This document shows, piece after piece, positions 1 through 64,000 of a stretch of DNA of 64,000 nucleotides. The translations under genes were made by a program, and so were the position numbers. The notes below the pieces were generated by a model. The model was not told the origin of the DNA. It did not search any database and was given only the letters and a program-made list of their open reading frames with translations. How positions within the stretch are numbered: position 1 is the stretch's first letter; each line of letters opens with the position of its first letter. Origin of the DNA: Psammoneis japonica (lineage: Eukaryota); NCBI GenBank assembly GCA_008632985.1, contig QPGO01000144.1:62001-126000 (forward strand), read 5' to 3'.

Positions 1-976
1 GCATTCAACCTCTTAATTGCCAGCCACTCCTGATGCATCTTTTTTTGTTTCATTGCAAGCTGCAGGCAGTGCAGGCATGTTTTTTGCTCCAGCTCCAGCA
101 AATCCTGCAGCATCCCATCCATCATCTTTGGGCTGCAACTCTGTTCACAATCTCTGCAGAGCATGCCCGTTTCCTCCGTTTCCTTGTTGTTGAGTGTGAA
201 CATGACACTGAGGAACAATGTTTCCTTGACATGCTCTCTTGCCTTTGCCATGTCTTGCATCACCTTGGTGTGATCCGCCACCCAATTGGCTGAGCTTGTC
301 TGCCACTCCACAATGACCATTGTCCTTTGCTGCTGCCACAGTGTTTTTTCTGGTGCGTGCTGAAGTGCACTGAAGCAAGGTGATGGATGTGGTTGAGTCT
401 TGTGGATGATGTGCATGTGACGGTTGTCTTTTTCCCTTCTGCACATTTTTTGCTTGCCTGGGCAGGGTCTTCTCCCCACATCTTTTTGTTTGGCTGCACA
501 TCTTGCTTTTCATCTTCAATGTCTGAACATTTGCTTGCCATGATGTCCAATGTCTCTTTGTGGCCAACTCTCTAACGGCTGTTGCTGCCATGCCAATCAA
601 CTCCCACTCAAAAATCAACCAAGTCTGCACTCAACAATTTGATTCAAAAATCAATCTGACACCTGCGCACCAACAAACGGCTCTTGTGAACAAGCATCAA
701 ATTGTTTCATCCTGCTTCCGCAGCTGTCTTTTTCCAATCAAACTTTTGGCTTGGCATGGCTTTTTGCCACCGTTGCCACTGCCACCCACAAAGTGCAGCC
801 CGCCCCAGTGTGTCTGCCACAACTCAATTGAGCCAGTCATCGCAAGCCACCATTTTTGTTTTCCAAGAACAGCAAATTGCTTGTCAGTCATCCGTTTCTG
901 CCTCTGAGAAAGACAAAGCAGCAAATCCCTGCACAGACTTTCAATGGAGATGAGGACCCACCCAGGAGCCCATGCG

Positions 977-1424
977 CAGCATGCATGCGGACAAAAGGTC
1001 ATTTTTGTCATGACCTTTGTGACATTTAAACTGTGACACGTCGCCGTGATGCATTGACTCTTACAAGCAACTGGACACTGCACTCCTCCCCATGCATCAC
1101 GCGACCTTGCGGCTCTTGCCAACGTGACATGACACTGAACGTGTTTGACGGAACAGTGTGGGTGCGTGCAAAGGAACACACAGAACTTGTGCAGAGTTTT
1201 GCGCATTCAACAGTGATCAACGTTGCTGCAGACAACTCCCACTCAGGGTTTTGAACCCCTGGTCTTCTGCCCAACTGATGTTCACGCAATGAACCACTCC
1301 GCTGTGAATTTACAAAGCAGCGTGCATGCAGACAAAAGGTTGTTTGTGTCATGACCTTTGTGACATTTAAACTGCAACACGTCGCTGTGATGCATTGGCT
1401 CTTGCAAGTGGCTGGACATTGCAC
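977..1424 (+). repeat. ~105-bp direct repeat, two copies (977-1083 and ~1319-1424)
   Basis: Both copies read gcatgc.gacaaaagg....ttgtcatgacctttgtgacatttaaactg...cacgtcgc.gtgatgcattg.ctctt.caag...ctggaca.tgcac. Differences are mainly tg/ca/ta/cg swaps. Confidence 0.85.
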
Positions 1425-1551
1425 ATGCCCCACCCCCCATGAAGAAGCAGAGGACAGGAGGAGGAAGAGGAGGAGGACAAATGTGATGATGATTCCTCTC
1501 AATGCGAAATGTTCCCTGCGCATGAATGGGAGCCAGTCCCATTCATGTTGA

Positions 1552-2709
1552 TTGATGAAGTTCAAGCCAAACTGGAGCGGCAAAGAGAGGTCACTTTTTC
1601 ATGGCAATCACATTTGTTTTTTGTCTGATTGTGCTGACATCATCACATTGATTTCTTGTTCTAACAGGAAGAAGGCCGCCGGTGATTTGTTGTCATTCGC
1701 AATGAACAAAAGTGACGATTGCGAGGAGGAGTCAATTGACCAGAAAACAAGCGAACTTCCAACCACTTGCATGGGTGAAGAGGACAAAAGCGAAGAGCCT
1801 GTTGACAATGAGCACAACCAAGTTGCACATTGCTCCGAGGGTGAAGAGGACCACAGCGACTTGGGAGGTTGTTTCGCAAGTGACAAAACTAACGGGGAAA
1901 CACACAATGTGCTGTGGTTGGGGATGACCCGTCCGCTCAATGCAAGGCAACTATCTTCTCAAGAATTGTGCTCTGAGAAGGGGGTGGCCTTAGCATCGTC
2001 CAACCAACACAGGCGAGACGAGGCCCGCACAATGGCATTTGAGGAATCTAACAAAACAATCACAAACGTCGTTCCAACAGTTTCTCTCCAAGACGGCCAT
2101 CCTGATCTGCACTTAAATTGCAATGTGAAAGCAAGAGATTTCATCAAGAGAGTCAAGCAGCAGTTTGAGAAACTTGTTGATTTCGACAATCATGGGTTCG
2201 ACCAAATCATGTTGGACTGCTGCTGGATGCCAGATGGAGAGTGGTGCGACAGTTGTTTTGGGACGACTCAATTTTTCCAAAATCTGGTTGATCTTCTGGC
2301 CTTGCTCTCCAAAAACAAAGAAGGGGGGGACATGGTGATTCCCTTTGCTCTTGCAACCTTCTTCCAGGTTGTCAAACAATGGAAGAAATTATTGGCTGTG
2401 TTCGACATGTGCACAATGGACAATGATGCTGCAAAGAGCCGTGCGAGCATGTTCTTTGCAAGCAACCTTGTGGCCCAAGAACAACAAGAACGGTGGTTGG
2501 GAAAGCCTTCCGATCAGGAAGAAGCTCATCTTGGAGTTTCCAAAGAAGACATCAGAACAAAAGCAATGAAAGGTGCTCGTGCCGCACTGCTTCACGTGCA
2601 CCACAATGACTTTGCCAATTCTGAAAGGATCAAATTCATCATGTTTGCAAGAAAGAGCCAGGAAATCACTGTGAGTGAATGGCAGATTGATGCGCGCATC
2701 CCATTTTAG
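1552..2709 (+). pseudogene. Hypermutated TE-associated ORF with possible class I SAM-dependent methyltransferase-like fold
   Basis: 385-aa Tyr-free ORF. Motifs VLWLGM, FDQIMLDCCWMP (restorable to FDQIILDYYWIP) and FFQNLVDLLALLSKNKEGGDMVIP. The 3' end runs into the element starting at 2667. Confidence 0.4.
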
Positions 2710-5017
2710 AAACAAATCTGACCAACACTTCCTTCTGTCCTGTGCAGCCCAAACAAACAGGGCCTTTTCTTGTGCTTCTGCCACTCCTGGACATTCTTCA
2801 TAAACCAAAACATTGTCCCCAATTGCTTCGACAGGGACAACCCGTGACTCAGGTGAGCACTGAGTCTTCTCAGGCGTTGAAAGCCAGTTGTTTTGTTTGT
2901 GATCAAGCTGCCAGCGACTGACCAAGTCTGCATGCTGATGCTGTTGCCTCACAGTTCTCTGGTCAATGTTGACAGGGCCTTCATCAAGACTCATGCTCGT
3001 CGTCCTTGTCTTGTGGATGAGAAGGGAAAAGAAGAACAACACACAAAAAATGGCGGGAAAATGGCAAACATTACATTGTCTTCCAGATTTTGATAATTCT
3101 TGCAGGTGTGACGTGTCTGCATTTTGATTTTTTATCTGGCATTTACAATGAATGTTGTTCTTTTTTATTTGCTGTCAAAATGAAGGACATCATCTCCGTT
3201 GAAACCCAATGACAGCCACATCAAAAAGTGAGTTGGACTGTTCATTGTTGCACACAAACACATTTTCAAATTTCAATGTCACTGACAACAATTTGTGCAA
3301 TGTCACAGAGAAAAACAGAGTGGCTGGCTGTCTCAACACGACCCAGATGACGGTTGCACTGTCAAACAGCAACACTGCTCTCATTGTTGCTGTGTGAAGA
3401 TCAAGATGTCGTCTTGAGCACCACCGGCAAAGAAGAGAAAGAAAAATGAGACCATTGAGCCAATGAGCCCAAGACTTCAGGCAGTGTTGAAGAGAACAGG
3501 TGCGCAGGCAGCGCATGGTGCATTGAAATCAGAAGCAGAGAAGGTGGCCAGAAATGATCTCTTTCCACAGGTGAAGTTTCTCAGTCCATCAGAATTGGCA
3601 AGTGATGGGAGCGTCTCAATGTTTGTCAAGAAACAGATTGCTGGTGGCAACATGGACACTTCAAATTGGTCAGGAACTTGGGAGGAATGGGCAAAAAAGG
3701 CGGTAAAAAGGCAAACCAACAATGGCAGAAACACGGTGTGTTCGGCCATTGGGGCGGAGGCAATGGCCCGCAAGTCAAGTGACCAATGTGTGTGATTTGA
3801 GAGTTGTGCGCATCTCACAAGAAGATGACGGTGATGCTTTGTCCATGTGGGCATTGTTGCTGAGGAAGAGGGAAAGGAAAAAGAAAAGAAACTCAAGGCG
3901 GCAGTCAGGAGGAAAAAGCAAAGCAGGAAAAAGTCAAGCCGTGACAAGAATGAAGAGAATGACATCCCGTTTGTGCCGACATGGGATCCGTTTAGCCTGG
4001 GCACTGTCACCGGCGGCAAACGAAGGAACAAGCAGGCATGCAAGTGGTTCTGTGATCACATCCCACCTCAAACCAAGCAAAAACAGGCACGGAGCAGCAC
4101 CGTCAAAACTGGGAATGCACAGGTCTCACAGTTGTTTGCGGCAGGTGACGAAGCTTTGGCGCCATCAGCTGTGGAGAATTGTTGGCAGGTGTGGGCATGC
4201 AGGAACAAGGAGGAGGCGGTGGAAGAATTGGGTGAGGAAATGGAGCCCGAAGAAACAAGGCCTGCCCCTCGGTGCACGAAGCCAAAGAAACAACGAGTGA
4301 CTTGGGGAGACGACGGAATCATTCGGTTCAACCATTTGCACAAAGAGGTGACGAAAGACAGAGACTCCAAGGAGGGCAAGGAGTTTGAAAAGTGGCATGT
4401 GGAGATCAAGAAAAGTGAGTGCAAGAAGTCCGGAGAAGCAAAAAAGAAGAAGAAGATGGCACCGACCGGTGACACGGAGAAGGTGAAGGCAATGAACAGC
4501 CCAATGGTGGAGAGCAGCAGGGACGACAATGGCAATGACGATGAGCAGGAGGAAGGCGCAAAAGGCAAAACGAATGATGGAGGAGACGATTCCGATGAAG
4601 ACGAGTCCAATGAAGACGAGTCCAACAATGATTGTCAGCTCAGTTTAAGAGAGTTGTAGCAAGAAAATGTGCACACAGTTGACACAGCACTCGGTCATTG
4701 CACTGCAGATGTAACAAGGAATTGACTTGACCGATGAAATGTTTTTCTCGTTTAAAACAATGTTTACGAAAATTGACAAACCAAGGTTTGTGTGGCAATG
4801 CAATCGCGCATTGGCATGTGGCAACAAGGTGGAGGCAGAAATGGTGATGTGGACACAGTGAAAAACAGCATGCACAATTCTTAACAAGTTGTTGCAATGT
4901 TGGCACACCAAACTTGCAACCAGAGGTTGGCCTGTCATCACATGACAACAAAGTTTTGCAATGTTTCAATGAATTGTCATCATGCAAATCTACACATTTT
5001 TAACATTTTGTGCACTC
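2667..5017. mobile_element. Internal-deletion derivative of the Plavaka/CACTA-like element at 29965-35698
   Basis: 2667-2965 aligns to 29965-30263 and 2966-5017 aligns to ~33679-35698. About 3.4 kb containing nearly all of the transposase is missing. Confidence 0.85.
3406..4659 (+). pseudogene. Element accessory ORF2 (copy 1), one intron ~3770-3849
   Basis: PAKKRKK NLS-like start, LFPQVKF..W..NGRN.V and WF.D..P..EALA...ENCW blocks, acidic tail, TAG stop at 4657-4659. Splice donor degraded to gcaagt. Confidence 0.65.
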
Positions 5018-5101
5018 TTGTGTGGCGCTCTTGCCGCTTCTTTGTCCTCTCCCCTGGATGAGACATCTGAAGAGCTCACCTTGCCCCCGGATCTGCCCGC
5101 T

Positions 5102-5493
5102 GATGGGTTTCAGCCCCAGGCGGGACTTCGTGTGACATTGGCCCGTGAATTCTGCGTGCGAGCTCCACAGCAAATTTGTGCTGCAATGAAAATGTGAATG
5201 ATCGCCAACAGAAAAAGAGGCAATTTTGCAAACGCATCTCCTCCTTCATGCTTGGAGCACATCAACAATGGTTTGCCCGGGTGTGTTCCAAAGACATCAA
5301 AGAGTGCACCCAGCGTGTTTTCATTCTCATGGCTGTTGAAATGGAAAGCCTTTGGCTTTGCAAAACAGGGAGTGTGAAACAATTTCACAGAACACAACAC
5401 GTGGAAATGCAGTGCACGACATGCGACGCGATCCAAAAATGATTGATGTCACAGTGCAGCAGTGCAAGGTCCCACCTGGAGCTGGAATGCATC
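5102..5493. mobile_element. MITE, GTTCCAG-TIR family (subfamily B), 392 bp
   Basis: Termini gatgggtttcagccccaggcggga / tcccacctggagctggaatgcatc. 4-bp TSD cgct/cact. Homologous to 63462-63859. Confidence 0.8.
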
Positions 5494-5499
5494 CACTGT

Positions 5500-8400
5500 C
5501 CCCCCCACCACTGCTAACTCGGATCCCTTGCACAGGGAGGCAGTCACCTGATCCACCAACCTTTTCACTCTCAGAGGAAGCTTTGTTGGAGCTGATCATG
5601 CTGTGCGAAAATTCCGGTGCTGCTTGTCAGTTTTGCAAGCAGTTGCTTGCCCTGTCACAATGATTTCACAAGAAGTGGAAATTTGATTGTTCCCAGTGTC
5701 TTGGGCCAGACTTGTTGGTGAAGAAACTCCACAAGAAGGTTTTCCTGCCCCAGCCTGACATTCGCATCATTGGCGGACAGGAAGTCACTTGCTTTTGCAT
5801 GCTGGACATGTTGAGAGATTTGCTCACCCACTCAATGTTTGACAATGAGCACAGCCTCAATGTGAACAAGTCCCTGCAGGCATGTTTCCACAAGTTCGTT
5901 CCTGTTGATGGGTGCAATCTTGGCAAGAACATGTCCAACAAATGGTGCTTCAAAACATGTGATGACCTCCCCAACAACTTTGACTGTGAGAAAGACTTGT
6001 TCTTGCCAATCAGCTTGTGCGCTGATCAGACAGGGGCTGATGCCTGTCAAAGGTGTCCCCTTGAACCCTGGTTGTTTTGTGTTCTTCTTGACAAGAGGTT
6101 GTGCTTGGCGTCACCTTGGGTTCATGCCAAGCACAGACAAGGGTGGGGCAAGTGGCGCACTTGATGAAAACGGCAATGTGAACAAAGACGGACAAGTGGG
6201 CAAGTCTTCTTCATCAATCATGCAGGTTTGCCATGACATGTTGTCTTTCCTCTCATAAGATTTGAAGGGACTTGGGTGGTGTTTGCATTGTGTCCCATCT
6301 CAACAAGCCAACACTTGGATGGACCAGGTCCACTTGAGCATTTGGAAAGGACAGTCCATTGGATGGCTGCCTCAAGAGGCAACAGAAGCTTGTGGCGGCC
6401 CTTCTTTTGCATCTGCACACAATGAACCCGCTGCAAAGCACCTTTGACAGTGTCAACTTTGGCAGCAATCTGTGGGGTGTGTTTTCAGCAATGGCTGATG
6501 ATCACCTTCATTCCTGGGAAGCAGGTGGTGTGGAGAACATCATGCAAGTCTTGCACTTTGGACTCACCAAGACAGAGAAGGAAAACTTTGAGATGGAGCT
6601 GAAAGCTGTCATTGGAAGCTGCAGATCCACGGCCTTGGTGCAACACCCAAGAGGTTGCTTGAGTTCTGGCTTCAGCAGAAAATGACTCTCCAGACCCACT
6701 CTGAAAAAATGGGTTTGCTGTTCCACCTGTGCACAGCAGTGCAATGTCTCAAGCCATGTGAGACAATGAAAAGGGCACATGAACAAAAGAAGAAACAAAA
6801 AACATTTCCCTCAACTGCAAAACTTGCCTCTCTGCAGAAAAAACCAAAGAAAAGCAAGAACAAAAAGGCAAATGCAATCAACAAGCCATCTTCCAATGTT
6901 TCTCAAGGAATTGATGACAGCTCATCTTCCAACAAGGAGAGCTTCAGTTGGTTGTGGCAAAAGATCTTGCTCATCCACGACTGCCTGTGGGCGCAACAAA
7001 AAGCAACAAAGAGTCACTCAGGAGGCTGCCTGAGACAGGGAAAATGCACAAAAGGCTGCTGAGGAGGCAGCACAAAGGAAGCCTCCTCCAAGGAAGAAAA
7101 TGACAAAAAACGCTTCCACCCACTGCTTTTCCCTGCAGGAAGGACACTTTTTTTGCCACGGACCATGGCAGCAAAGATCCTTTTGATCACAAATTGGGAA
7201 CAATCCAGTGTGTCATCAAGCACCTGAAGCTCCACAGATTTGCTTTTTTGCCAGAGGATGACTTCAATGAGTTTCAGCTGAATCAGCTGTTCATCAAATC
7301 TTGGAAGATTTTGAAAACCATCAAAAGCAAGGAGGATGATTTTTGCCCACCACATGACGTCCTTGACTCCATCACATGTCCCATTGTTGGGGACTGCTGT
7401 GATTGCCTTTTACAAAGAAATCAGGGAATGCTTTCAAACGTTGACATGTGCATTGACTCCAGGCAGTTGGCCACAGAGGAATCATGTGAAGGGGAGGATG
7501 TGGCAGTTCAGAATCCAGGCCAGTTCTCTTGCCCAATGGAGAATTGTGTTGTGAAGCAATTGACACACGGGTGCAACATCATTCAACATGATGACCTTCT
7601 CTTCTTTCTTGGAGCACATTCTTTGCTGCCATGCATTTTGTCATTGTTCCCACCATCTTCTGGGAGCAATGCAGAAGGATCATGCTGTGATTTGCTTTGG
7701 GACAAAGTGAGTGGTTGGCTGCATGGACACCATCCTGTGCCAGGGTGACAACTTGGCAGACTTTGACATGGGAAAGGTTGAAGCCCAGAACCACAAGGAC
7801 TTTCATCATTCAAGGCTTGGTGACAACATGCAATCACATGCATTGACAGGTGAGAGACTTTTGAAAACCAAAGCAAAGAAGATCTCCAAGGTGGCCCAGA
7901 AGCACAGTGAGGCCACTTTCCTCCAACAGACATGCAAACAAATTTGTGAAGCCCTTCTGTGCAGAAGGTGTGTGGATGAGATCGCCGTGCAGAAGTCGGA
8001 AGAAAACCTTGCATTGCATGGTCTTGTAGATGATGCATCCTCCATTGCCAATGGTGATGGAGAATCCAAAGTTGCCCAACACATGCCACACTTTGTCTTC
8101 CAGCACGATTGTTTTGAGGACCTGTTGGCACTTGATTGACATGGTGACAAAAGCCCAACTGACAAGGAAATGAGCACACCTTGCTGAGCCTTCCTTGAAG
8201 CCATCCAAGAACTGGAACCAGACCAACCCAGGTTTGACATGTGGAATGAAGCAAAACTTGCAAATGGTGACTGCCTCTGAGCTTGCCCACTGTGCTGCTC
8301 CAAAGAGGGCCCCTGGTTTGATTGGGCAGAAGTCCATTTTGACATGGATGATGCATCTTGCAAACCCCGCCCTGCATGTGTCGTCAGTTTCTACAAGGAT

Positions 8401-8772
8401 TCTGGTGGGGTTGCAAAGGCAATCATTCATTCTGTTGACTGCAAGTTGGTGTCCACGTGGGTGACCGAGTCCGATTTCGGGGACAACAGATTGTTCACTC
8501 ATCATGTGCAAGAATTTCAATCATCTGGAAGACCATCAATGCAGAACATTGGCCTTCATTCAATGCATCGTGGCATTCTCTGTTCCTGTCAAAGCAACAC
8601 AAAGACCCGGTCCCCCGAAGTGTGCAATCAAAACCAGAGGAGGGAACACCAAGTGATGGTGGTGAAACCCCGCTTGGACTGGGCAAAGATGTTTTGCAAA
8701 TGGACAAGGGAAATGATGTCAAGAGAGAAGAGTGCTGAGGGCACTGACAAGTGCATCTTTTGGAGCAATTGA
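5500..8772 (+). pseudogene. Degenerate Plavaka/CACTA(CMC)-like transposase, second subfamily
   Basis: Motifs across frames: LFLPISLCADQTGADACQRCPLEPW (cf. LY.DKTG...YPLEP), AWRHLGFMP, CHDMLS, FDSVNFGSN.WGVFSA..DDHLHSWEAG, GERLLKTKAKKISKVAQK. Frameshifts, and the I.GD block appears deleted near 6270. Confidence 0.7.
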
Positions 8773-9525
8773 AATGCAGACAATGTGGGCTTGCATTGGA
8801 GGCTGGATTGCCAAGCTGTTTTCTTCCAGTGTGGCTGGAAATGATGCACTGCCACAACGAGAGCCTCCGTGCAATCTTGGGTTGGAGATGCCATGTTCAA
8901 GGACTTCCTCTCCAGCCATCGCTGCTCTGTCAGTCTCCTTCAATGCCTTGTTGATGCCTTTTCTCCGCCTTTGCAAACCCACTCTCTTTTTGTTGTTGCT
9001 TTTCCACATGTCAGAGCAGATCAAATCTTTGGTCTCAGTCTGGCTTGCTTCAACCAGCAGATCCACAAATGATTGCTTGTCCTCCTTCTTGAGGTTTGTC
9101 AAGTTGTTGCCCTTGTGGTGCACCAATGGAGCCAGTTTGTCTTGAATCAGATTCCTGATTGCATGAGTTGCATCCATCATCTTCTTTTTCATCTGGGCTG
9201 AAGCATTGTCTCCAGCGATGGGCCGCCAGTGGGGTGAATCAAAGCTGCACAGCAGGGACCCATTGACAACTTTCTCCTGCATGTCCTCCATGGACACAGG
9301 ATCATCCATCATGAGGCCATTGTCATGCTTGGTGCATTTTTCAGCAATCTCAGCATCATTGTGCAGTCTGACAGCATGAACCCATGCATTGTGGGAATGC
9401 TTTTGCTTGATGCATGCAGCAAGAAACTCTTTGTGAGCTTCTTCAACTTGTGCATTGGTTGCAATGCCACCAGCCAACACACTTGTGAGTGACTGCTTGG
9501 ATTCCTGCAACCTGATGTGGCACCT
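8770..9525 (-). pseudogene. Hypermutated ORF remnant of unknown function, cut by a MITE
   Basis: Protein-like, Tyr-free ~250-aa stretch (QESKQSLTSVLAGG...KKMMDATHAIRNLIQDKL) convergent with the transposase. Confidence 0.35.
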
Positions 9526-9746
9526 GACGCGTTCCAGACGTAGGTGGGAATCCGTGTGACATTGGGCCCGTAGACTTCTACGTGCGAGCTCCGCAGCAAA
9601 ATTGCACGGCAATTAAAATGCCAATGATCGCCAACAGAAAATGAGGCAATTTTGCGAACGAACAAACTCGCACATGATTGAAGCACATCATTTTTTACTT
9701 GGCCAGTTGCATTCTTCAGACATTGAAGAATGCAACTGGCGCATTG
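9526..9746. mobile_element. Truncated MITE, GTTCCAG-TIR family (subfamily A), inverted relative to 31981-32376
   Basis: Starts gacgcgttccagacgtaggtgggaatcc, the reverse complement of the right part of the 31981 copy. Second TIR absent. Confidence 0.8.
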
Positions 9747-9933
9747 ACATTCTCACAGGATTTTGCTTTCTCCTGCAACCTCTGGGCCTCCGCAGAGTCA
9801 CACCCACTGTTTCATCCATGACACCTGACATCTGGAGGCCATCAAGACCAAGATCGCCATCTCCTGCAAGGTCTGTTTCAGCATTGTTGTCATTGGATTT
9901 GCCATTGCCAAGAGAGTTTCTTCAATGTCCGAA

Positions 9934-10160
9934 TCAAAAATCCTTCAAGAGAGTCTTGTCACCAATGTCGCGCTTGAAGCAATTGTCTTTGATGCAAAGC
10001 TCTCCCAAATTGGCAAATTTGTTGAGAATCGTGAAATTGCTCATGAAGGAATTGTTGTTGAGATGAAGTTTCACAAGAGACATTAATTCTCCCATTGCAG
10101 TTGGAACTGGGCTGGCGAAGTTGTTGTTGTTGAGTCCAAAGATCCCAAGAGCTGTTCCAA
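9934..10160 (-). pseudogene. Hypermutated leucine-rich-repeat gene fragment
   Basis: ALGIFGLNNNNFASPVPTAMGELMSLVKLHLNNNSF...LGELCIKDN matches the plant-type LxxLxLxxNxFxGxIPxxxGxL repeat, with LYL->LHL and LYI->LCI. Confidence 0.6.
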
Positions 10161-18981: not shown

Positions 18982-19016
18982 GGTGATTTGGATACAAGTG
19001 TGGTGTTGTAGTGATG

Positions 19017-52200: not shown

Positions 52201-55200
52201 GACACGGCCTTGCGCCGAGTATCAATGTGATTTTCCAATACCATTAGCACCACCAACAAATGAGGTACATAATCCCTGGCAGCCTGGATCGCTTGAGAAG
52301 CCGCGGCTGACCTTCGTGATCTTCGCATCATGCGTGACTTTTTTCGTGGTACCAGGTTCAAGCCACCATAGACGCGTTGAAAGGCACCGCCGACCGCTGC
52401 AATCAGTTCCATCAAGACACTCAATGCTGCCGGGTCGACTGGTGCCTTGCCGTCCTCCTTGCTATCCTCGGGGTGAGACACGAGCGATACAACCAGACCC
52501 GGAAGCAACGGCATCATGACACGGAGTCGGTCCGACAACAAATCCGAGTAGTTCCAAGAGCTGCGCAATATTAGGGGAAATAATTGTGTGTTGAGCAATA
52601 CGAACAAACGGATATCGCAAAAAAATCAACAACAACAACCATACATCACTACTCACCTCTTGTCATTACGCCGTCCCCCAATCGACAATGCCGCCATGGC
52701 GGGCGGAGGCAAAAAGAGACACGACACGAGCCGTTCTTGATTCTTGGTGGACGACACGAGGCATCCTTGCAAACTACCCGCTAACGAGGATGCCAACAAG
52801 AGACTTCCCGTTGATTTGGCGGCAATTTCTCCTTCGGGACCGGCAATCGACGTGAGCCATGAAAAAATCAACAAGACAAACCGCCAATCCCGTTTCCATC
52901 CCATGGTGTGGTCCGTGTCTTTTTGTTGTTTGGAAGGGTTGCCATTGCCACTGGTATCGGCCAACTTTTCTCCACAAAAAATGGTTCGACTCAACATCAT
53001 GGGTGCAATGACATCATGGTATTGTCCCAATAACAAGTTTCGTCCCAATCGAGACGCCACTTGTGTCTTGAGTTGTTCTTGATTCATATTATGGGATGCT
53101 TCCTCTTCAATCGCGGCATCCAACAGAGACTTGTTGTTGTTGTTGCTGCTATTGCGTGGCTCGGGCAATATATCACACCATTGCAAAATCATCACCAACG
53201 CTTCCAAAACGACATGTCCACCCATGGATCCAAGTGGACAATCCGACAGTGCTCCGATACAAGCGGCAATGTCGTGTTCACTCTGAGAAATGACCTTGTC
53301 ATTCATGAGTGATGCCAAGAGCATTCCAAACAAGAGTTCGGCAAGTGATTTGGATATTTGTTCCAAGGCCGCTTGTTGGGGATCGACATGTTCGTCCAAC
53401 ACAAGTGTCGACAAGGACGTGCTCAAGAGTGAAACACTGTTGTTGTGGTAACGACGTTTGGAATCATACCTCATTTTGACAGAATCCAACAAGAATTGAA
53501 CGGGCATTTGCGATCGAAGCAAGTGTCCACCACTCTTGTGAAAGGATTGCTGCCAAACATCTTGGAGTGACTTTTTCTTGGGCAGTGGTGGTGGCGGTCC
53601 GCCGTACAAGTTGGATACGGTTTTCAACACGAGCGCTGCACTCTCCAAGTGTCCACCCCACAAATCAAAATCCAGAGCAAAGCTAAATATGCACGTCATG
53701 GCCAAATCGGATGACTTTTGAACCAATGTTTTCAAATCCGAAACAGTAGCAGTAGTAGTAGCGCCACAACAGGCTTCAATCAATTGACATGAGGCCCTGG
53801 CCAAATCCATGGGAATGTAGCCTGGACAAACATCGTCATGGTGGTTTTCATCATTGCTGCGCTTTTTGTTGTTGTGGTTGCTCTCTTGTTGCTTGAGCAA
53901 CTCCTTTAATGATATTCCACTACCACTTTCATCTAGCACATTCATTTGAATGGCACGTACCAACGATCGTCGCAGCGTGGATGCCAAAATGTGTAAGAGT
54001 CCCGATTGCAACACTTCTTCTTGAATGCGTGCTCCACCATTTTGAATAGAGGTTGCCAAACTATCCACCAAGAGCGCCGCAAACGCTCCATTGTTGCTGT
54101 AGAGTGCATGCAATCTCTCAAGAGATTGCGTTTTCAAAGAATCTTGTAAATGCAACACTTGTCCCGGTGGTTCGAGTGCTAAAAACAGGGGCAAGACACA
54201 ACTCGACAAGAAACCTTGTTCATGGAGCAAAGTGAAAGCATTGTCCCTGCGTCGTGGTGGTGCTATTGTGTTCCATCACCACCATGATGTTCTCATGTTC
54301 GGGTGTGTGATGCAATAAAAATTCCGACAATAAATGCGTCGCTTTGCACGACGTCCCTCCAATACGAGCGGCAATGCTTCTTGCGAATGGGGTGCTTGAG
54401 GTTCCAACAGTCCCACCTTGGGTGTGACTTCGGTATCACCCACCAAATAATAATTGGGCATGACGATTCGATGATGGGGATTGCGTAAAATCAACACAGT
54501 CGTGGCGGCATAACTCAAATAGACCGAAGATAATAATTGTTGCAATTCCAAACAATCCATGAGTGGAATACCAACGGATGCCTTGCGTCCATCGAGTGAT
54601 GTGCCCTTGGTGGGATTGGCCACGGGTGGGACCAAACCCTGTTGGAGTGGTAGGGAAGGACCGGCAGCGGCCAAGATGGCTTGATAGAGGGGTGAAATGA
54701 CTTCTCCGTACAATTGAATTGCAGCCACGTGCAAGTGTGCACCGACAACTGTAGTAGTAGTAGTAGTACTGTCTGCCAATTCCGAAGCCGTCACTTGAGA
54801 ATCATCCTTTTTTTGATTTGTCATGGTTTTGACTCCCCCCGCCATGCAATTGACCAAACAAGTGTTATAGGACATGTTGGCGGCCACATGATCCAAGACG
54901 GGAAAGCCAATTCACCATGTCCCTGTACCGTACCATTGACAGACAACGTCCATTGAGGTCGTTTGAGGTAGGGAAAATTGTGTGTAATACCAATCAAGGA
55001 CCACTGTTCAAGATTTAATTTCATACAGCAGGAAACAAGAGAGGACTGTTGAAATTGTTCTTGTTGCAACGACGACGTAGTACTTGCACCGACTTGACTG
55101 TGTGATATACTGGCGTGTGGCAACGAAAAGGCCGTGACGGTGGTCTGTACTTGATTTGTTTCATTCGAACAACAACTCCACTCTCCGAGCGTGACACAAA

Positions 55201-55664
55201 TTCCAATCCATGTTGATCTTGTGGTGACGTACTGAATCGATACAACACACGTCGTGTTTCGTATTGATAATGATTGGGATTGTCACTCCGTTGCGGTGTG
55301 GCAGTCAGACAGGCCTTGCTTTCTTCTTGGGTCTTCAACAACACGGGTCGTACCCAAAATAATATGGTGTAGGATTTGCGTAGCTTTTCCTTCCAATCCA
55401 ACGGTGGCAATATTCCACACGTACCATTGCCACCCAAATCGACGTGAGCATCCAATTCCGATAAATACGGTTGGAGGTCATTTAGAATGTTTTTCTGGGA
55501 AAGCGTGTTTTTCTGCAACAACGAAAAGAGATATTGACTCGTCGTGGTGGTTTTAGGTGCACCGTCGTCATCATCGTCTTGAATTGGATTCTCCATGAGA
55601 TTGCGCAACGACGATTGAGACAAGAGCAACGACGACGACGATGATTGTTGTTGTTGTCCGTCAT
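46237..55664 (-). CDS. BEACH-domain protein (PH-BEACH-WD40; neurobeachin/LvsC-like)
   Basis: [85 protein letters not shown], then WD40. Introns 48183-48101 and 52656-52561. The 5' part (54230-55664) shifts frame, so the start is uncertain. Confidence 0.85.
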
Positions 55665-57899
55665 GGTGCCTTTTTTGGGAGTGTTGGAGTGAATAGAAGA
55701 AGCTACGTGGAAATTGCGTAGAATTTATACCAGCGAGATCTTTTGGGTTTTGTTCGTGTGGGTGACATTTTGCGCGCGTAGAGTGCGCGGGAGAATGACC
55801 AACGGAAATGCACTTCTACGGGTATGAAGCTTACTGTATTTGTGGAACTGTCCGAATGACTTTGAGAATTGCTGCCTGCTTGCACAGCGGTGATGCCACT
55901 GGTCAAGTTCCAATGTGGCAGACAAGATGGGATTCTGCACCACTTGTGTCTGGCTGTGGTGTGGGTGGAGTTTTTCTCATGGTGTGTCTCATTGTCCACC
56001 ACAAGGGGGTTTGCTCAAACTTCTGTGCTGTGCTGTGGCCACAGGCCAAGCAAGGCCAAGCTGTGCTTCTCATGGCGGCTCTTGGCTCTCGTGCCACAAA
56101 TGTGCTNTTGTGGGCATGTGTTGCCATTGCATCTTGTGTCTGGCAGGAATCTGGCAGGTGATGTTGCTTTTCCAATGCCTCTTCTGCTTTGTCTGGAACT
56201 CACATCACATCCACCATCCACAAAATTCAAGCACCTCAACTCATCTTGTCAAAGCACGCCTGTTGGCGACACACCAGCTGCTGAGCAACTCTTCACTTGC
56301 TTTGTTTTTTTGTCATGTGGAGCCTGACAACTGTTTCATGCAGGGTCCAACTGCAGAGATGTGCAAATCAACTTGCAGCCCTCTGCACTTCAATCTGTCA
56401 AGGGTGTGCTGTGCTCTTTGCAGCAAGCACCTTCTTCCCTGTTTGTCTCACAGCAGTTTTTTGCTTTGTCACCACCAGCAGCTGCTGTCTCTGCATGCCG
56501 CTGACTTTTTTTGGGGTGGATGATGACACTCTCTTGTGTGGAACCTGCAATGAACTGCCTGGGGTCCCCCCAAGGATGGCCCTGCAGCTGAGCCCTCCTT
56601 GCTTCTTGCACACAATGTGCTGGAGAGTGCAGAAATGCAGGTTTTGCAACTTGCAATGTGGCAATCAAGTCTGTTGAAGCCTTCTGCCGAAGCCTTTGGC
56701 CAAGGTGGATTTGTTTGCTCTGGCATGCCTGAGTTGACTGACCAGAGTTTTTTGAGGCATCAGGCTGTGACAGTGCACGGAATGTGCTCTGGCTGTGTGC
56801 AGCTCTTTTCCCTTTGCCAAGCTTTGGGAGGAGCTTCCACCTGCTTGCAAAACTTTTGGGCAACCCCACTCCTCCTCTTCTGCACTTGCAAGTGGCAGCG
56901 TTTTCTTTTGCAGCAGCTGGACTCTCCAATTTCAGATTGTTTCTTTGTCCGCATCATGGGCATTGACCAAGTGGCTTCACATGTGGTGAATGAGTCCTTT
57001 TTGCCTGCTGCTGTGCAGCCCACCCCTGACCAACACTGCCATGGTGATGCACGCCCAGCACACCCCATGCTGCAGCTGCCAGTGCATGTTGAATTGGATC
57101 TCTGCTGCTGCACGACATTGACGGCAAACATCAATTTTCACTCCAGCCCTTTTCGTCAGATTGGCAATTGTGCTGCTGTTTGCAACGATGCTGCCTCTGT
57201 GAACAAGACAGGTGTGTGCCTCTTTCCTTTGGCACCAGCACTGCTTTTTGGGCTTTCCCAAGCTCCCAGATGATGACAACCCTGCTGTTCTTTGACTTTG
57301 GTCTTTGATGCCATGCTCTTTTGGTTTGGTTGATGAGCTCAACTCTGGCACCTTTTTGGCTGGCTGCTGCATCATCTGGGGTGTCTGGTGTGTTGCTCTT
57401 TGTGTTGGCTCCAACTCTGCACACTTGGACCCACCCACACTCCCTGATGATGATCCACCAGGAGAGACTTCACGCCCCATCTTTTCTTTCTTTGGACAGC
57501 ATCTTGAGACCGTTTCTCATGATTGTCATTAGAGCGCACAACACAGTGATCATCACGCATCTTTTCATTGTGATTTTTGTTCCTTTTGCAGACAAATTTT
57601 TCATGGTTTCAAACCTTGTCAGTTGTGTGGCTGGCAATGACATGTCAACCATGACAGATCAACATTTTTGTGCTGTGGGATCAGACCCCCCTCCCCATGA
57701 GAAAAAATGTTTCGCTGTGAAACAGGGGCACGTTTTCCCCATGAGAGTGCCGCCCTCCATCCCTGCAAAACCTGTGAATTAAAATCATTTGCATTGCACC
57801 ATGAACATTCCATTTTGTTGTTTGCATTTAAATTGAATGATGCCGACAGAGACAACACCCTGGAGTCTGCAGCAGCAGCTGCAGCTCACTTTCATCAAG

Positions 57900-58760
57900 T
57901 GCCGCTGCTTGCAGCCACCTTGTTCATTGCCAAAAATGTGCAGAATGCATTGTGAGAGTGCAGTGTGGATGAACCAACACTGCCAACAGGAACGGCAACT
58001 CAGACTTGCCGGTGCATCCGGCACTGCTGATTCTGGAACAGGCGTGTTTGCAGCAGGAGCTGCTGTTTCATTGTTTGAAGTGCCGCTGCTCTGTTCCACC
58101 TCATTCATTGCCAAAAAGAGCAAAACACATTTTGAGAGCATTGCACAGATGAGCCAACACAACCCACAAGAACGGCAACATGGACGTGCCAGTGTGTCCG
58201 ATGCCGCTGATTCTGGACCAGGTGAAGCAGCACTGCTCTGATCCACCTTGTTCATTGCAAAGAAGAGTGAAATGCTTTGTGAGAGTGTGTGGGACAACAA
58301 CAGCAGCCAATTGAAACTGCAACATGGACTCACTGGTGCATCCATCATGGCAGATTCGGTCACTTCTGCCACCGGTTCCCGACCCAGCAAAGCTGATTCC
58401 AGACCATGTGAAGCGACGCTGCTCTGACCCACCTTGTTCATTGCAAAGAAGTGTGGAGCGCTTTGTGAGAGTGCACAGGACAACAACAGCAACCAACTGA
58501 AACTGCAACATGGACTCACTGGTGCATCTGCCATGCATGGCAGATTCGGTTGCTTCTGCCACCGGTTCCCGACCCCGTGAAGCTGATTCCGGACCATGCG
58601 AAGCAACACTGCTCTGATCCACCTTGTTCATTGCAAAGAAATGCAAAATGCTTTGTGAGAGTGCACAGGACAACAACAGCAACCAATTGAAACTGCAACA
58701 CAGACTTGCAGGTGCACCCACCACTGCCGATTTGGGAGCTTCTGCTTCTGGTTCCCGACC
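57900..58760 (+). repeat. Diverged tandem array, 5 units of ~150-190 bp
   Basis: ccacct..ttcattgc.aa.aa recurs at ~57915, 58096, 58243, 58429 and 58619, followed by tgagag and gctgattc..gac blocks. Confidence 0.8.
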
Positions 58761-58788
58761 CATCGACATGGAATTGGCAGCTGCCGTG

Positions 58789-59055
58789 GGCCTGTTCCAG
58801 CTCCAGGTGCTCCGCGCGGGTTCGATTCCCATCATTTGGAAATTTGTGCATTTGGCGCAACCAACTTTTTCCAAATCCGTTTTTTGCCAAATCGAAGGGC
58901 AAGTGTGCACATTACATGCATTTTTGGGTGTACACTCACCTTTCAACTTTCGATTTTCGAAACGATCAAAATTGAAGGAGTCAATTGTGCCAAACTGCGC
59001 AAAAAATCGGCCTCTCGCGTGATGAAAAGCAGATCACCTGGAGCTGGAACAGGCC
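58789..59055. mobile_element. MITE, 267 bp, GTTCCAG-TIR family (subfamily C)
   Basis: Perfect 21-bp TIR ggcctgttccagctccaggtg / cacctggagctggaacaggcc. 4-bp TSD cgtg/tgtg. Confidence 0.9.
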
Positions 59056-62000
59056 TGTGGTTGTTGCAGTCGACCCCCCTGCTCTTGACCACAAACAGCA
59101 GAGAGACTTGGGAAGCCTTTAAAAATGAGCCCAACAACTCAGGCAACCTCCAACGGGTTGCCTGTCCACTCTCTGCCTCTGCAGTCTTTCTGGATCTGGG
59201 CACAGAAATTGGAGAAGATGGGTGTGACACAAGTGAACACATCAAAAACAAGTGAAGCTCTTTTTGTGCATGCCTTTTTTGAAGAGTGTCATGTGTGGCA
59301 AAGAACTCCTCATGTGTGTGATTCTGAGAGCTGCAGGAACAAGCACTGGGTCTGGACACAGAAGTTGGAGAAGACGGATGTGTTGTTGGCGAATGTGTCA
59401 AAAACCAACAACGTGCCTCTTTTTGCACATGCCTTGTTTGAACAGTGTAATTCATGGCAACTCATGATGACTCTGGGTGCAAAACTCTGACATGCACAAC
59501 TGTGACAATGCTGCAGAAAAGCAAGTTTGTGATGTGCGTGCACACAACACACAACAACACGCCAGCAGCTCAGCATTCTGGACACGGTGGATTCGTGACA
59601 GCACACTCAAGATCACAAAATTCAAGCTGTGCCCGAATGAAACCCCATCTTGACCAACCAGAAAGATGGCAGGCATCACCACATGTTGAGCTGCTGTCAT
59701 CGGCTGGCGGGGGGCAAAGCATTTCACCGCCATGGCCAGTTGTCGATTTGCAGATTTGCGACCACACGCAGGATCCACGTGAATCATGACAGCACATGCT
59801 GTCATTTTTCAAACTTTGGGCAGAGGGTGCGCTGTTGTGAAATGTGCAGAAAATTGTGTGTGCAAAACACATGATGAAAACGCCACAGACCAACAGGCTG
59901 TGCAAATCTGGGATGCATGAAGAAAAATGAAGGTGGGTCACGTGCATGCGTGAAGTGCTGCAGACTGCACAAGTGCAAAGACACACACATGTGAATGAGG
60001 AGGATGAAGTCAAAACCAAGTTCAAATTGATTAAGATCCAAAGGAAACCAAACCATGCATCACAAAAAACAGATTTTGACTCCAATTGAATCAAAAAACA
60101 TTGCGTGCATTTGATTGAAGCTTGTGCAAGAAAAGTCATTGGGGCATCAGATGAAATGCAAAAAAAGGCTTCAATTTGTTGAGCACTTTTTCTGGCATTT
60201 TTTTTAATTCTGCTTGTTGACAATTTTGACAATGCACGTTGAACAATTTACAAAGGAAAGTGGAAACCACTGCATTGCCACCTCTGATGTGACCCAAACT
60301 TTCTTGTCTTTCTGCTTTGTTTTTCTGCCCCCTGGTTTGCCAACCCAACACCAGATTTTTTGAAGTTGTCCAGTCACGACCTGTGCTCTTTTTCTCTTCT
60401 TGGGGGGGGGGAGCAGGGGATGTTTTCTGCTTTTTGCTTTGCAGCCACTTGTCCAGCAAATTGCAGCACACCATTTGTGGATGCTCTGTGTTCTCTTTTT
60501 GTCCATTTTCTTTGCTTCTCTTCTGGACATGCACTGCCATTGTGTCTTGTCTGATGGGAGTCTGACAAAGACAATTTTGTGCATTTTGATTCTGGCAACA
60601 ACGCACATCTGCACTGCTGGAGCTGCTGGTTGGTTCTTTGTGCAGAGACGATGAGATCTTTGCTGCACAGTGCCAAAGGCATGCTGAGTTGCCACACAAT
60701 GTGCAGAACGTTGATTTTTGTCAACTCTTCTTGCTGTGCACAGCTGCACCACCATGGTTGCACATCACACTCTTGCTGGTCAATTCCATGCAATGAAAGC
60801 ACTCAACCGCTGATGAGAAAAGAGTGGCTCATGACTCCACTCCTCTGCATTTCAAGTTTTCTAAATTTGCAAGTTCTTGGGTCTGTGTGTCAACAGGGCT
60901 GCTTTGGGCCTGCTTTGTTCTTTTGCCACAGCACTTTAAAGAATGCCCAACGCCTCACTTAAAAAGAAGCTCATGTTTTTCTGGATTTTGCAAGTTCTCA
61001 AGTCCATGTCAACTGGGCTGCTTTGTTCCTGTTTTGCTCCTTTGTGAGAGCACTCAATGCTCCACTTTCGAATTTGGCAGCACACATTTTAAATGCTGGC
61101 TTGAAGCAAAGGGTGTGTTGGGCATGCATGAAGCAAGTGGTCAAGCAGCCTCAACTTTGAGTCAGCAGAGTTGATCTCTTCTCTCTCATTCTCAATGACA
61201 TGAGCAAGAAGCTGAGCTGTTTGCTTTAAAAACAGCTGAGTTAAAAAAAAACATTTGGTTGTTAACTTGGCTCAATGAGAACATTTTGAAAACCTTTCAC
61301 ATGGGTGGGGTGCAGATCTTCTTGTTGTTTTTGTTCTTTGGCTTGTGCCATTGCTCGCCACAACACATTCTCCCCATTGTCTGCATTGTTGTGTCAGGAT
61401 TTTGAAGCAATTGTGATGAAGGGCATTCCCCTCCATTGAACAAACATGCAGGCTGCCAACAAAGCTGCTTTTTCTTTTCAGGAAAGTGCTTCAAGTTGTT
61501 GCAGCATTTGTGGTTGTTGGTTGTTTTTAGAAAGCTCTGGTGTGCAAGTTGGCTTGCACTGGACTCAAAACTTTCTTGGGGTGGTTGAGATGGAGGGTGC
61601 TCTCCTCCACGCATGCTGCCCGCTTTTGCCAGTTGTGCTCCAAAACTGGCAGCAGGCTGAATGCCTCATCACTTGCAGATGCCAACCTGTTCAAGCAACA
61701 TCTTGATTGATTTGACCCGATGCATCCACACTGTCTTTCCCACCACAATTGGAGGCAGGGAGTGCAGGGTGAAATTGCTTTGGACCAGCATGTTGTCTCT
61801 CCCCTCTGGCATTTTGTCCAGAGATGGCATCTTGTCATCATTTTCTGCCTGTGTGTTTCTCTTCTTGTGATCCATGTGCCCTGTGCAATCATGACACACC
61901 AAGCAATGTGTGTCGGCAGTCTTCCAGTGCCCTGCATGTTGCACACTTGACTTTTTGGCTTGAAGAAACAGCCTGCAGCACAGATGAGCCAAAGCAAAAG

Positions 62001-63162
62001 CTCACATCAGTGAGCTTTGCCACACTGGGCAACTCTTTTGACAGGGTTGCTGTTGCGTTGTGAGCTGATTGCACACCAGATGACCCTGAAACCAGTGTGC
62101 ACACACTTGCAAGATGAACATTCATTCCTCAGACAGGCACCAACAATGAGGGGGACATTTGGCCAGCCTGCATTCATTTGAAAAAAGGAGCTGACAAGAA
62201 AGTCTCAGTGGTGTTGTCATTCTCACACAGATGCAGAGATCTCTGTCAAGTTGTGAGCAACGCTTGCACAGACATGCAAGCAGGGCTCCTCTGCTGCTGA
62301 ACTGCTGTGATGACACCACACTCTCCTCTTTGCTTGTCATCAACAACACCTGCAGAGAGAGAATTTGCAATGTGAACTCTGCTGCTCTGTTGATGACAAC
62401 AACACTGGCATGTCGAGCACTGATGCACGCCACTGCTGTTTGTTTTTGTGGCCTCTTTTGTGTGCATTTTGGCATTCTTTCTGTGTGCATCACACTCTCA
62501 AAATGGCTCCATGATGCTGCTGAGTTCCAACACCTGCTGCCCTTCTGTGGTGCAATGACAACAGCTTTTTTCTCCATTCACTTTTGCTGCAGCACCAGCT
62601 GACAGCACCTGCTCCAAAACAGCATCCTCATGGCGGGCCAAACATGCGTCACTGCAGGCTGCCCTTTCGCTGACTTTGGCCGATGGCGGCACACCAGCCG
62701 CTGACAACCCCACAGCGGCACCTTGCTGCCACAGCATGTGTGATGTTGCAATCTCATGCATTTTCCACAGCAAAGAATGCTGCAATCTTGCCTTGGCTGC
62801 CACCTTGCTTGCCCCCTGAGCTGCCTCCCGAATGGCCTCACACGCCACCAGACACGCCACCACAAACCTCCAGCGCCATTTCACTGGCCTCAAACACCCA
62901 ACAAGGAACTTGTTTCCATGTGTCACACTTGGCTTGCCTCTGCAACAGCACACATTGGTGAGTGCAAAATGGCACTTGACAAATCTGCAGACGAAGTGTC
63001 CAAACTCTGTCTCGAAGTCCGTGATCTGTGAAACACGAGAGGAGCTCCGCCAACAGCAGCATGGCCATTGTGGACCTTGGTCACTCCAGTGATTTTGTGG
63101 TCTTGCGTGCAGAGGTGGAATCTCTGTCAGAAAATGCTTGACCACCACAGCTTTCGATCAGT

Positions 63163-63960
63163 GATGCGTTCCAGCCCCAGGTGGGAGCTCGCAGCACTGA
63201 CGTGTGACAACAATGATTTTTGTCATCCGTCGCATGTTTCGCACGTAGATTTCTGCGTGTGACATTTAAAAAAAATTGTCCAGACTCGCCATTTTGCGAA
63301 GCCCCAGACGTTTCACACAACAAATTTGTAGAAACAACAATGCGCCAGCCACATTCTTCAATGTCTGAAGAATGTAACTGGCCAAGTAAAAAATGATGTG
63401 CTTCAATCATGTGCGAGTTTGTGCGTTCGCAAAATTGCCTCATTTTCTGTTGGCGATCATTGACGGGTTCCAGTCCCAGGTGGGACTTTTTGTGACATTG
63501 GGCCCGTGGAATTCTGCGCGCGAGCTCCGCAGTGAAATTGTTGAGCAATGGACACATGAATGATTGCCAACAGAAAAAGAGGCAATTTTTGCGAACGTGT
63601 CTCCTCCTCCACACTTGAAGCACATTCTTTGCAGCATGCCCGGGTGTGTTCTTTAGACACCAAAGAACACACCCAGCGCATTTTTGTTGATGTGGGTGCA
63701 GATGACAGAAAGCCTTTGGCTTCGCAAAACAGGCAGTGTGGAGCAATTTTTTGTGATGGAACACGTAGAAATGCACGTGTGAAACATGCGACGGGTGACA
63801 AAAAAACAATCATGTCACAGCTCAGCAGTGCGAGGTCCCACCCAGAGCTGGAACACATCCATTGACATTTTGGTTGCCGTGTGATTTCACTGCGGAGCTC
63901 GCATGTAGAAGTCTGCGGGCCCAATGTCACACGGATTCCCACCTGCATCTGGAACGCGTC
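63163..63960. mobile_element. MITE subfamily A carrying a nested subfamily B copy
   Basis: TIR gatgcgttccag/ctggaacgcgtc, TSD cagt/cagt. 798 bp minus the 398-bp insert minus its 4-bp TSD equals 396 bp, the length of the 31981 copy. Confidence 0.93.
63462..63859. mobile_element. Nested MITE subfamily B, 398 bp
   Basis: Termini gacgggttccagtcccaggtggga / tcccacccagagctggaacacatc. TSD catt/catt. Confidence 0.9.
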
Positions 63961-64000
63961 CAGTGTGGACGCCTCTCAAAATCCGACCATTCGATCTGTT

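Follow-up and report, generated by a model that had tools for sequence, protein, structure and literature searches.

Probable in-place, TpA-directed hypermutation of transposon-filled intergenic domains in a diatom genome

A 64,000-nucleotide stretch of the genome of the diatom Psammoneis japonica (contig QPGO01000144.1 of assembly GCA_008632985.1, positions 62,001 to 126,000; this whole stretch is called the window, and coordinates are counted from its first letter) was found to have lost nearly all TpA from its intergenic, transposon-filled parts. These parts are likely to have undergone, in place and after insertion of the elements, A:T to G:C transitions aimed at TpA on either strand, at a rate that depends on the flanking bases and with a slower decay of CpG alongside. 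In the mechanism that we favour, DNA transposons (a Plavaka-type element, a high-copy miniature inverted-repeat transposable element (MITE) and other repeats) fill the intergenic stretches, and TpA on either strand would be turned in situ into TpG or CpA after their insertion. The rate would be set by the flanks, ATAT, ATAC and GTAC being erased and TTAA largely spared; ordinary decay of CpG to TpG or CpA would proceed alongside, more slowly and with a flank preference of its own, and the chemistry would be an adenine deamination in DNA. The direction of the change, its specificity for TpA, the hierarchy of flanks, the sharp limits, the involvement of both strands, the independence of copies and a graded decay within one family can all be read from the sequence as it stands.

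The observed/expected ratio (O/E) of TpA was at or below 0.12 in 32 of the 64 1-kb windows, situated at 1-11, 26-32, 33-40 and 56-64 kb, against 0.36-0.74 in gene windows. Segmentation delimited five domains (1-11,830; ~19,757-20,531; 25,382-31,980; 32,377-40,837; 55,838-64,000) with a total of 35,904 bp, or 56% of the window. A preliminary description of this DNA had reported loss of TpA, loss of CpG and saturation with TG and CA over about half of it; both the 1-kb windows and the segmentation bear this out, and the boundaries agree with the coordinates given there. Together the domains contained 146 TpA, where 2,447 were expected from base composition and 1,375 from the frequency in gene regions. 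Their CpG O/E was 0.34-0.53, that of TG and CA 1.6-1.8 and their GC content 0.47-0.49, and AA, GA and AT showed no depletion comparable to that of TpA.

The leftmost domain (1-11830) held 49 TpA in 11.85 kb (O/E 0.06, CpG O/E 0.37) of high-copy repeats and low-copy degraded sequence; it extends past the left end of the window, and normal TpA density is found again from 11,831. A small depleted island at 19757-20531, with five TpA in 801 bp, consists of the mutated twins of repeats located at 19018-19869. The third depleted stretch (25382-40837, 25 and 41 TpA in 6.65 and 8.45 kb, O/E 0.06-0.07) is interrupted solely by a little-mutated nested MITE and has no TpA at all across 25,382-26,192. The rightmost domain (55838-64000, 26 TpA in 8.15 kb, O/E 0.05) includes TpA-free runs of 1,693 and 1,718 bp as well as further MITE copies at 63163-63961, and extends past the right end of the window. 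The domains occupied the intergenic space right up to the gene borders, and their edges were step-like: as far as 55,837, successive TpA were 5-50 bp apart, and the next 1,693 bp had none, a gap with a chance of about 2e-28 at normal frequency. Similar steps were present at 11,831, 25,381 and 40,838, and around 19,757 and 20,531.

Compared with gene regions, the domains had lost TA (-0.0342) and CG (-0.0348) and gained TG (+0.0374) and CA (+0.0327), the summed frequency of the four pyrimidine-purine (YpR) steps being unchanged (0.2416 in domains, 0.2406 in genes); transitions from one YpR step to another therefore account for the change. TpA and CpG would each have contributed about half of the TG/CA excess, an approximate partition whose baseline is the local genes and not true ancestors. 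Polarity was provided by repeat copies at 19018-19756, which have normal TpA density just outside a domain and served as a stand-in for the ancestral state; homologues of the copies at 19018-19869 lie inside domains at 19867-20410, 27027-27186 and 36105-36430. TpA outside faced TG or CA inside at 30 sites, against one in the reverse direction, and CpG outside faced TG or CA inside at 21 sites against four. Among these copies, two tandem twins differed by 38 transitions and four transversions: 19018-19333 has 17 TpA and 19867-20180 has two, the latter having lost 13 of the 15 aligned TpA of the former. With the outside copies as ancestor, A>G changes affected 27 of 67 strand-sites at TpA, compared with 9/157 at ApA, 11/133 at CpA and 8/98 at GpA, that is 28/388 for the other contexts of A (odds ratio 8.7, p=4e-11). 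A duplication carrying a NUDIX gene outside the domains, taken as a control, showed an ordinary mismatch spectrum (54 transitions, 42 transversions).

Further support came from the remnant of a transposase gene of about 1,150-1,270 amino acids (aa), situated at 29999-33661 on the minus strand and delimited by collinear homology to its relatives. It includes the longest open reading frame (ORF) of any domain (30194-32047, minus strand, 618 aa), for which a representative library held 2,127 relatives at E<=0.001, the closest of them, P0124, being 60% identical. Full-length relatives measured 1,150-1,340 aa; P0125 (28.4 bits) and P0128 (32.0 bits) passed the gathering score of Pfam family PF18759, P0126 and P0127 fell below it, and a window ORF at 32346-32702 matched this family weakly (E 0.0095, 15.6 bits, against a cut-off of 26.3). 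Homology to these relatives thus points to a Plavaka/KDZ-type element. When 114 of the 174 domain ORFs of at least 90 aa (roughly those of at least 105 aa) were compared with Pfam, no transposon domain scored above threshold, which is what heavily mutated genes should give. The same search with P0124 and with the ORFs of L001 and L002, two of four metagenome contigs (L001-L004) carrying related elements, yielded no match except ankyrin repeats in a neighbouring ORF. In L001 (1335-4871) and L003 (1766-4975) the transposase of about 1,180 aa is made of two adjoining frames with one in-frame stop between them (3270-3272 in L001), which could represent an intron, a read-through site or a recent defect.

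The composition of the 618-aa frame was aberrant: it has no Tyr, 5.8% Cys and 4.9% His, compared with 3.2%, 2.3% and 3.9%, respectively, in P0124. A Tyr codon (TAY) becomes Cys (TGY) or His (CAY) by transition within its TpA. The 16 aligned Tyr of P0124 faced Cys (12), His (2), Ile (1) and Ser (1), and the five columns with Tyr in four relatives held four Cys and one His in the window ORF. When 138 aligned Tyr were pooled from eight relatives, which are not independent of one another, the window had Tyr at 2, Cys at 50, His at 19 and Phe at 18; Phe and Trp were conserved in the same pool at 67% and 66%. The relatives themselves were normal in this respect, since Tyr made up 0.59-5.0% of the 150 best of them (median 2.97%) and TpA O/E was 0.50-0.66 in L001-L004. 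The preliminary description had proposed A:T to G:C transitions at TpA on both strands; polarised sites, codons and relatives all speak for this proposal. Two findings that would have told against it, a polarised spectrum without excess of A>G at TpA and elements natively free of TpA, were not encountered. As far as copies and homologues can stand for ancestors, the three independent lines (polarised copies, codons and TpA-normal relatives) show that TpA was lost and not natively absent.

No new stop codon can result from a change of TpA to TpG or CpA, which abolishes TAA and TAG. As regards the earlier statement that the elements are destroyed, their proteins are ruined by missense only. As TAA and TAG are impossible in TpA-free DNA and only TGA can stop translation, long open frames arise in dead DNA, up to the 618 codons mentioned above. 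Frames of 280-385 aa without family match were common in the domains (e.g. 1552-2706, 8722-9612, 27797-28678 and 58104-59033), and over-calling by gene finders is likely in dead transposon DNA of this kind.

The Plavaka-type remnant adjoins a 2-kb repeat (33683-35698) that is 88.9% identical to 2969-5018, and this second copy adjoins a fragment of the C-terminal end of the same transposase. Adjacency alone suggests that the repeat belongs to the Plavaka element. The two copies differed at 187 of 2,012 aligned bases, by 157 transitions and 30 transversions, and the commonest dinucleotide difference was CA<->TG (37); the swaps among ta, tg and ca that had been described between homologous copies are therefore real. 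At 2667-5018, a match to 29965-30263 is fused to a match to 33683-35698, and this candidate is probably an internally deleted copy of the Plavaka element.

A graded series of losses was offered by the MITE family. One member of 396 bp, with 24-nucleotide terminal inverted repeats and CGTC on both flanks, is nested within the transposase gene (31981-32376) and retained 14 TpA, a near-normal density (3.54 TpA and 5.81 CpG per 100 bp), in the midst of a transposase remnant with 0.17-0.31 TpA per 100 bp. The copy at 9526-9746 (minus strand; 2.26 TpA and 6.33 CpG per 100 bp) is at an intermediate stage, followed by those at 63163-63464 (1.66 and 5.30) and 63461-63864 (0.50 and 3.96), and in an older copy at 5101-5498 TpA is fully erased (0 in 398 bp, 0.00 and 3.52 per 100 bp). 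From this series it follows that TpA loss builds up after insertion and outpaces CpG loss. The variable columns of the family contained 43 transitions and one transversion, and at two sites TA, TG and CA were present in three copies, which, as judged from this alignment, means that copies mutated independently, in place and on either strand. The family also had the highest summed read depth of the stretch, about 42,500 over 9079-9612.

Survival of TpA depended strongly on its neighbours. When each NTAN tetranucleotide, taken together with its reverse complement, was compared between domains and the gene baseline, survival was 0 for ATAT, 0.009 for ATAC, 0.018 for GTAC, 0.02 for ATAG, 0.084 for CTAC, 0.089 for ATAA, 0.13 for CTAG, 0.157 for GTAA, 0.25 for CTAA and 0.72 for TTAA, so that TTAA accounted for 43 of the 146 surviving TpA. 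The same order was obtained with L001-L004 as a second baseline (TTAA 0.79). An additive per-strand model, in which the rate is set by the base 3' of A, reproduced these values with r=0.98 (T 2.8, C 1.8, G 1.0, A 0.07), the order of preference being TAT > TAC > TAG >> TAA. The data fit a per-strand target 5'-TAB-3' mutated as A>G and, equally, 5'-VTA-3' mutated as T>C on the other strand; gains of TG were greatest where C or T followed, irrespective of the base on the 5' side. TG versus CA strand skew over the elements did not exceed +/-0.15, and an asymmetry between transcription strands is not needed, as a ratio of about two Cys to one His is already predicted by the flank rule on its own. 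ADAR enzymes favour a 3' G and the tRNA contexts of ADAT2/3 differ; the 3' order T > C > G >> A matches neither.

Decay of CpG in the same domains was a distinct process, slower than the loss of TpA and with another flank preference. Taking the outside copies as ancestor, C>T changes affected 19 of 64 strand-sites at CpG and 28 of 287 in other contexts of C (p=1e-4). CpG survival was lowest for TCGA (0.20) and highest for GCGC (0.70), the opposite of the flank rule for TpA. Diatom transposons are reported to be CpG-methylated by DNMT5a, and RID-related DNMT4 genes of unknown function to be widespread in diatoms (PMC9998398). Decay driven by 5-methylcytosine resembles what was seen here (CpG O/E 0.34-0.53, 21 polarised sites against 4) and would form one component of it; the difference is that only about half of the TG/CA gain, and no part of the TpA loss, can be put down to it.

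Reads also carried the pattern. DNA run X1 contained 96% of the sampled words from 8001-16000, and contigs assembled from its exact 31-letter words, at a single-copy depth of about 58, showed 0-1 differences from depleted parts over 0.2-5.6 kb (e.g. 8634-9553, 9717-10433 and 10419-16000). Depth was equal in depleted and gene parts, without a shift at the domain edge. A base-calling artefact is therefore an unlikely source of the pattern, and its absence from reads, which had been named as a possible refutation, was not observed in these accurate-read contigs. Summed word depth reached 5,000-42,500 over 535-5874 and 9079-10146, against about 58 for single-copy sequence, pointing to some 100-700 similar copies genome-wide. 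Run X2, which gave spliced contigs and behaves like RNA, though not recorded as such, had zero cover over 1-11,748; this is not taken as evidence for silencing.

The limits of the domains were informative where they cross coding sequence. An FG-GAP repeat ORF at 25050-26033 (minus strand), a host-type coding sequence, straddles the edge at 25,381, and its Pfam FG-GAP_2 match (E 6.8e-14) lies within the domain. Its 211 N-terminal residues inside the domain include no Tyr, compared with three in the 117 outside. Seven Tyr of a paralogue at 43655-45718 that align inside the domain face His (4), Cys (1) and Ser (2), with weak polarity because the paralogue is about 32% identical. This FG-GAP/Kelch frame is still open despite the loss of all Tyr in its domain part; a pseudogene is one possibility, a gene harmed by hypermutation that spilled over another. 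Since host-type sequence was affected and one repeat twin was spared 0.5 kb from its mutated counterpart, targeting looks positional rather than homology-driven.

The preliminary description knew of no comparable system, a statement that no longer holds: a 2026 preprint on mutation-accumulation lines of Bigelowiella natans, a chlorarachniophyte (rhizarian) alga, shows the same TpA signature arising de novo (Mettrop et al., bioRxiv 10.64898/2026.01.13.699255). According to this preprint, of 302 nuclear mutations 231 were located in two viral insertions, one of a giant virus and one of a virophage; A>G or T>C made up 230 of the 231, the GC-biased ones were all on TpA, and the rate was about 1000-fold over background in a subset of lines. 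It further reports 124 TpA-poor, CpA+TpG-rich clusters (of at least three 1-kb windows) in a genome of about 95 Mb, with enrichment of reverse transcriptase and DDE domains, and proposes, without establishing it, an ADAT2-like deaminase. Our data share with those reported there the near-exclusive A:T to G:C transitions (here 30 sites against one, 38:4 in the twin pair and 43:1 in the MITE family), the restriction to TpA with TpG or CpA as outcome by strand (here both at one site among copies), and the confinement to delimited foreign or mobile DNA, with step edges, Plavaka and MITE elements inside and genes at O/E 0.36-0.74; the affected FG-GAP fragment, of host type, is a partial exception. 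A long-term TpA-poor footprint and an activity that comes and goes are also common to both. By analogy, the process may well be of the same kind. The two cases differ in host, a stramenopile diatom here and a rhizarian there, of different supergroup-level lineages; in saturation, with a TpA O/E of about 0.05 over 56% of the 64-kb window here and 0.45 in the giant-virus insert of B. natans; and in targets, those identified here being high-copy DNA transposons known from standing sequence, with no de novo events. Flanking context is not mentioned in the main text of the preprint, and the sparing of TTAA, the co-located CpG decay and the spared twin are features of the present case. No report of TpA hypermutation in diatoms was found in searches of the literature, and broader searches yielded only the B. 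natans preprint. Hyper-editing by ADAR and mutation by APOBEC3 are similar insofar as they impose a context-specific deamination burden on parasitic nucleic acid. ADAR differs by acting on double-stranded RNA, with its preference for a 3' G, and APOBEC by converting C to U in TC or CC on single-stranded DNA, preferences that are partly covered in the discussion of the preprint; a TpA-specific change affecting both strands of resident DNA results from neither.

Repeat-induced point mutation (RIP) of ascomycete fungi has in common with our observations that it makes only transitions, prefers a dinucleotide, ruins repeats and mobile DNA and leaves aberrant domains between normal genes. It proceeds in the other direction (C:G to T:A, chiefly CpA to TpA) and creates TpA, stop codons and AT-rich DNA, whereas here TpA is destroyed (O/E 0.05), GC stays at 0.47-0.49 and no new stops appear. 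Nor is duplication supported, in this one window, as a trigger leading to mutation of both copies, given the spared twin and the near-intact MITE. A RIP-like mechanism of opposite chemistry, in which duplicated sequence is detected and mutated irrespective of place or chromatin, would agree with the repeat-rich nature of the depleted DNA and with the roughly 100-700 copies suggested for some of its parts, and a comparison with RIP is also drawn by Mettrop et al. (10.64898/2026.01.13.699255). We regard it as improbable, given that 19018-19333 keeps 17 TpA next to a twin that lost 13 of 15, that host-type FG-GAP and low-copy stretches are as depleted as repeats, that a high-copy MITE inside a domain is almost untouched, and that a single-copy viral insert was mutated in B. 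natans according to the same preprint. Still less credit, indeed hardly any, can be given to the view that no special process exists, methylated CpG having decayed to TG and CA in elements that were natively TpA-poor or lost TpA by selection. CpG decay is real here and explains about half of the TG/CA gain, in line with the known methylation of diatom transposons (PMC9998398). It cannot remove TpA, which moreover was lost faster and more completely than CpG, with opposite flanks (TCGA decays most, TTAA least), from elements whose relatives have normal TpA and about 3% Tyr.

Editing of transposon transcripts from A to I by an ADAR-type enzyme, fixed by reverse transcription and re-insertion, is the least probable of the explanations considered and practically negligible. 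It draws on the preference of ADARs, which are discussed in the preprint (10.64898/2026.01.13.699255), for a 5' U, and conflicts with the identity of the elements as DNA transposons (Plavaka type and MITE), with the occurrence of TG and CA at one site in different copies (i.e. on both strands), with the difference between adjacent twins by location and with the depletion of flanking host-type sequence. An artefact, in which a DNA modification in repeat chromatin leads to wrong long-read base calls at TpA, with TG or CA then fixed randomly in the consensus, is also very improbable. The platforms of the assembly and of run X1 are unrecorded, X1 may come from the assembly's own sample, and errors at modified bases can depend on context. 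Noisy reads would not be expected to yield exact 31-letter contigs at depth about 58 with 0-1 differences; depth does not differ between depleted parts and genes, the MITE series is graded, and the outcome is coherent at codon level. The alternative to which we give most weight, while still considering it unlikely, concerns the base that is attacked: the T of 5'-VTA-3' might be oxidised to 5-hydroxymethyl- or 5-formyl-uracil by a TET/JBP-type dioxygenase and mispair with G, resulting in T>C. In dinoflagellates 5-hydroxymethyluracil is said to favour TpA and TpC, and in mushrooms TET/JBP genes travel with Plavaka/KDZ transposons. Survival data cannot discriminate between A>G in TAB and T>C in VTA, which are the same event on opposite strands, and polarised outcomes favour the A-strand by just 13 to 10 with seven ties. 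The predominance of Cys over His in place of Tyr (12 to 2 for the closest relative, 50 to 19 in the pool) and the gain of TG before C or T regardless of the 5' base are both simpler if the 3' neighbour of A matters, as in the deamination of adenine that we favour.

Several observations weigh against the reading of an adenine-directed, in-place process or limit it. No mutation was seen arising, everything being deduced from standing sequence. The presence of a near-intact MITE in a saturated domain shows that the process is episodic and not continuous, or else has not been recently active there. Double differences of the type TG<->CA are unassignable to TpA or CpG ancestry; a two-copy decay model applied to the 37 of them predicted about six from CpG, and it was not relied upon because unequal site rates could mimic the result and because 15 of 32 flank-matched doubles sit in contexts for which few are expected under the strand model. 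In the read table, high-copy copies differed by single variants that were mostly of the CpG type (15), with one of the TpA type. Polarised outcomes agreed with the stronger strand in 13 cases, disagreed in 10 and tied in seven (7 to 2 in strongly asymmetric contexts), so that the assignment of the flank preference to one strand is moderately supported. A simple moonlighting of ADAR or ADAT2/3 is not obviously right. Finally, run X1, with no platform on record and possibly the assembly's own data, provides support rather than independent proof.

The remainder of the window is occupied by genes, including a giant BEACH-domain gene (46237-55815, minus strand) and NUDIX, VTT and FG-GAP genes. Contigs of run X2 revealed a spliced gene at 11922-14366, with GT..AG introns of about 100 nucleotides. 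The best named relatives of the BEACH region were from Bacillariaceae sp. (73%), Nitzschia (74%), Amphora (71%) and Seminavis (82%, part of the region), all raphid pennate diatoms, followed by Triparma and oomycetes at about 50%; the host is thus a diatom, unlike the alga in which this type of mutation was described. A coding exon of the BEACH gene (52701-53601) was mildly TpA-poor (O/E 0.23; TG/CA 1.4-1.5) with normal CpG (0.87), which may reflect coding bias rather than hypermutation. The NUDIX gene is covered by a segmental duplication (24233-25052 and 42665-43496, 86.8% identity), and each copy is followed by an FG-GAP repeat gene on the minus strand. A tandem array of about 14 copies of a 117-bp (39-codon) unit, with 82% identity, was located at 17183-18816 within a minus-strand open frame (15901-19077, 1,058 aa) that has no Pfam match, in a region of strong strand skew (AT skew -0.26). 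Single N bases occur at 39373 and 56107, both within depleted domains and one of them inside a G-run. An Rfam scan of the window gave no match.

Natural, motif-specific A:T to G:C change in chromosomal DNA is very unusual, the sole report found being that on the rhizarian alga. What the present window adds is a diatom lineage, the scale and saturation of the loss, transposons as targets, the flank rule, a distinct CpG decay in the same place and evidence for positional targeting, the spared and mutated twins and the step-like edges pointing to targeting by place and not by homology. Such a process would presumably be a means of genome defence, with silenced or foreign DNA as its target. It is possible, though we put this forward tentatively and with some doubt, that diatoms and chlorarachniophytes have in common an immunity based on DNA editing and guided by location or chromatin, ancient or repeatedly acquired, which converts TAB to TGB on either strand of silenced mobile or viral DNA alongside cytosine methylation. 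If so, it would be a mirror image of RIP that needs no duplication and makes no stop codons, and a large share of the diatom genome would have been processed by it. The sparing of TTAA would then be diagnostic of a new DNA adenine deaminase, which could be found via genes common to the lineages with the footprint, and an enzyme of this kind, if it is one, would be of interest for base-editing work. For the search for the enzyme, the flank rule provides a concrete biochemical signature, and it can be compared with the 231 de novo mutations reported for B. natans (10.64898/2026.01.13.699255). Given a saturated footprint on high-copy transposons of a diatom, the process is not a curiosity of one species and can reshape the genomes of ecologically dominant algae.

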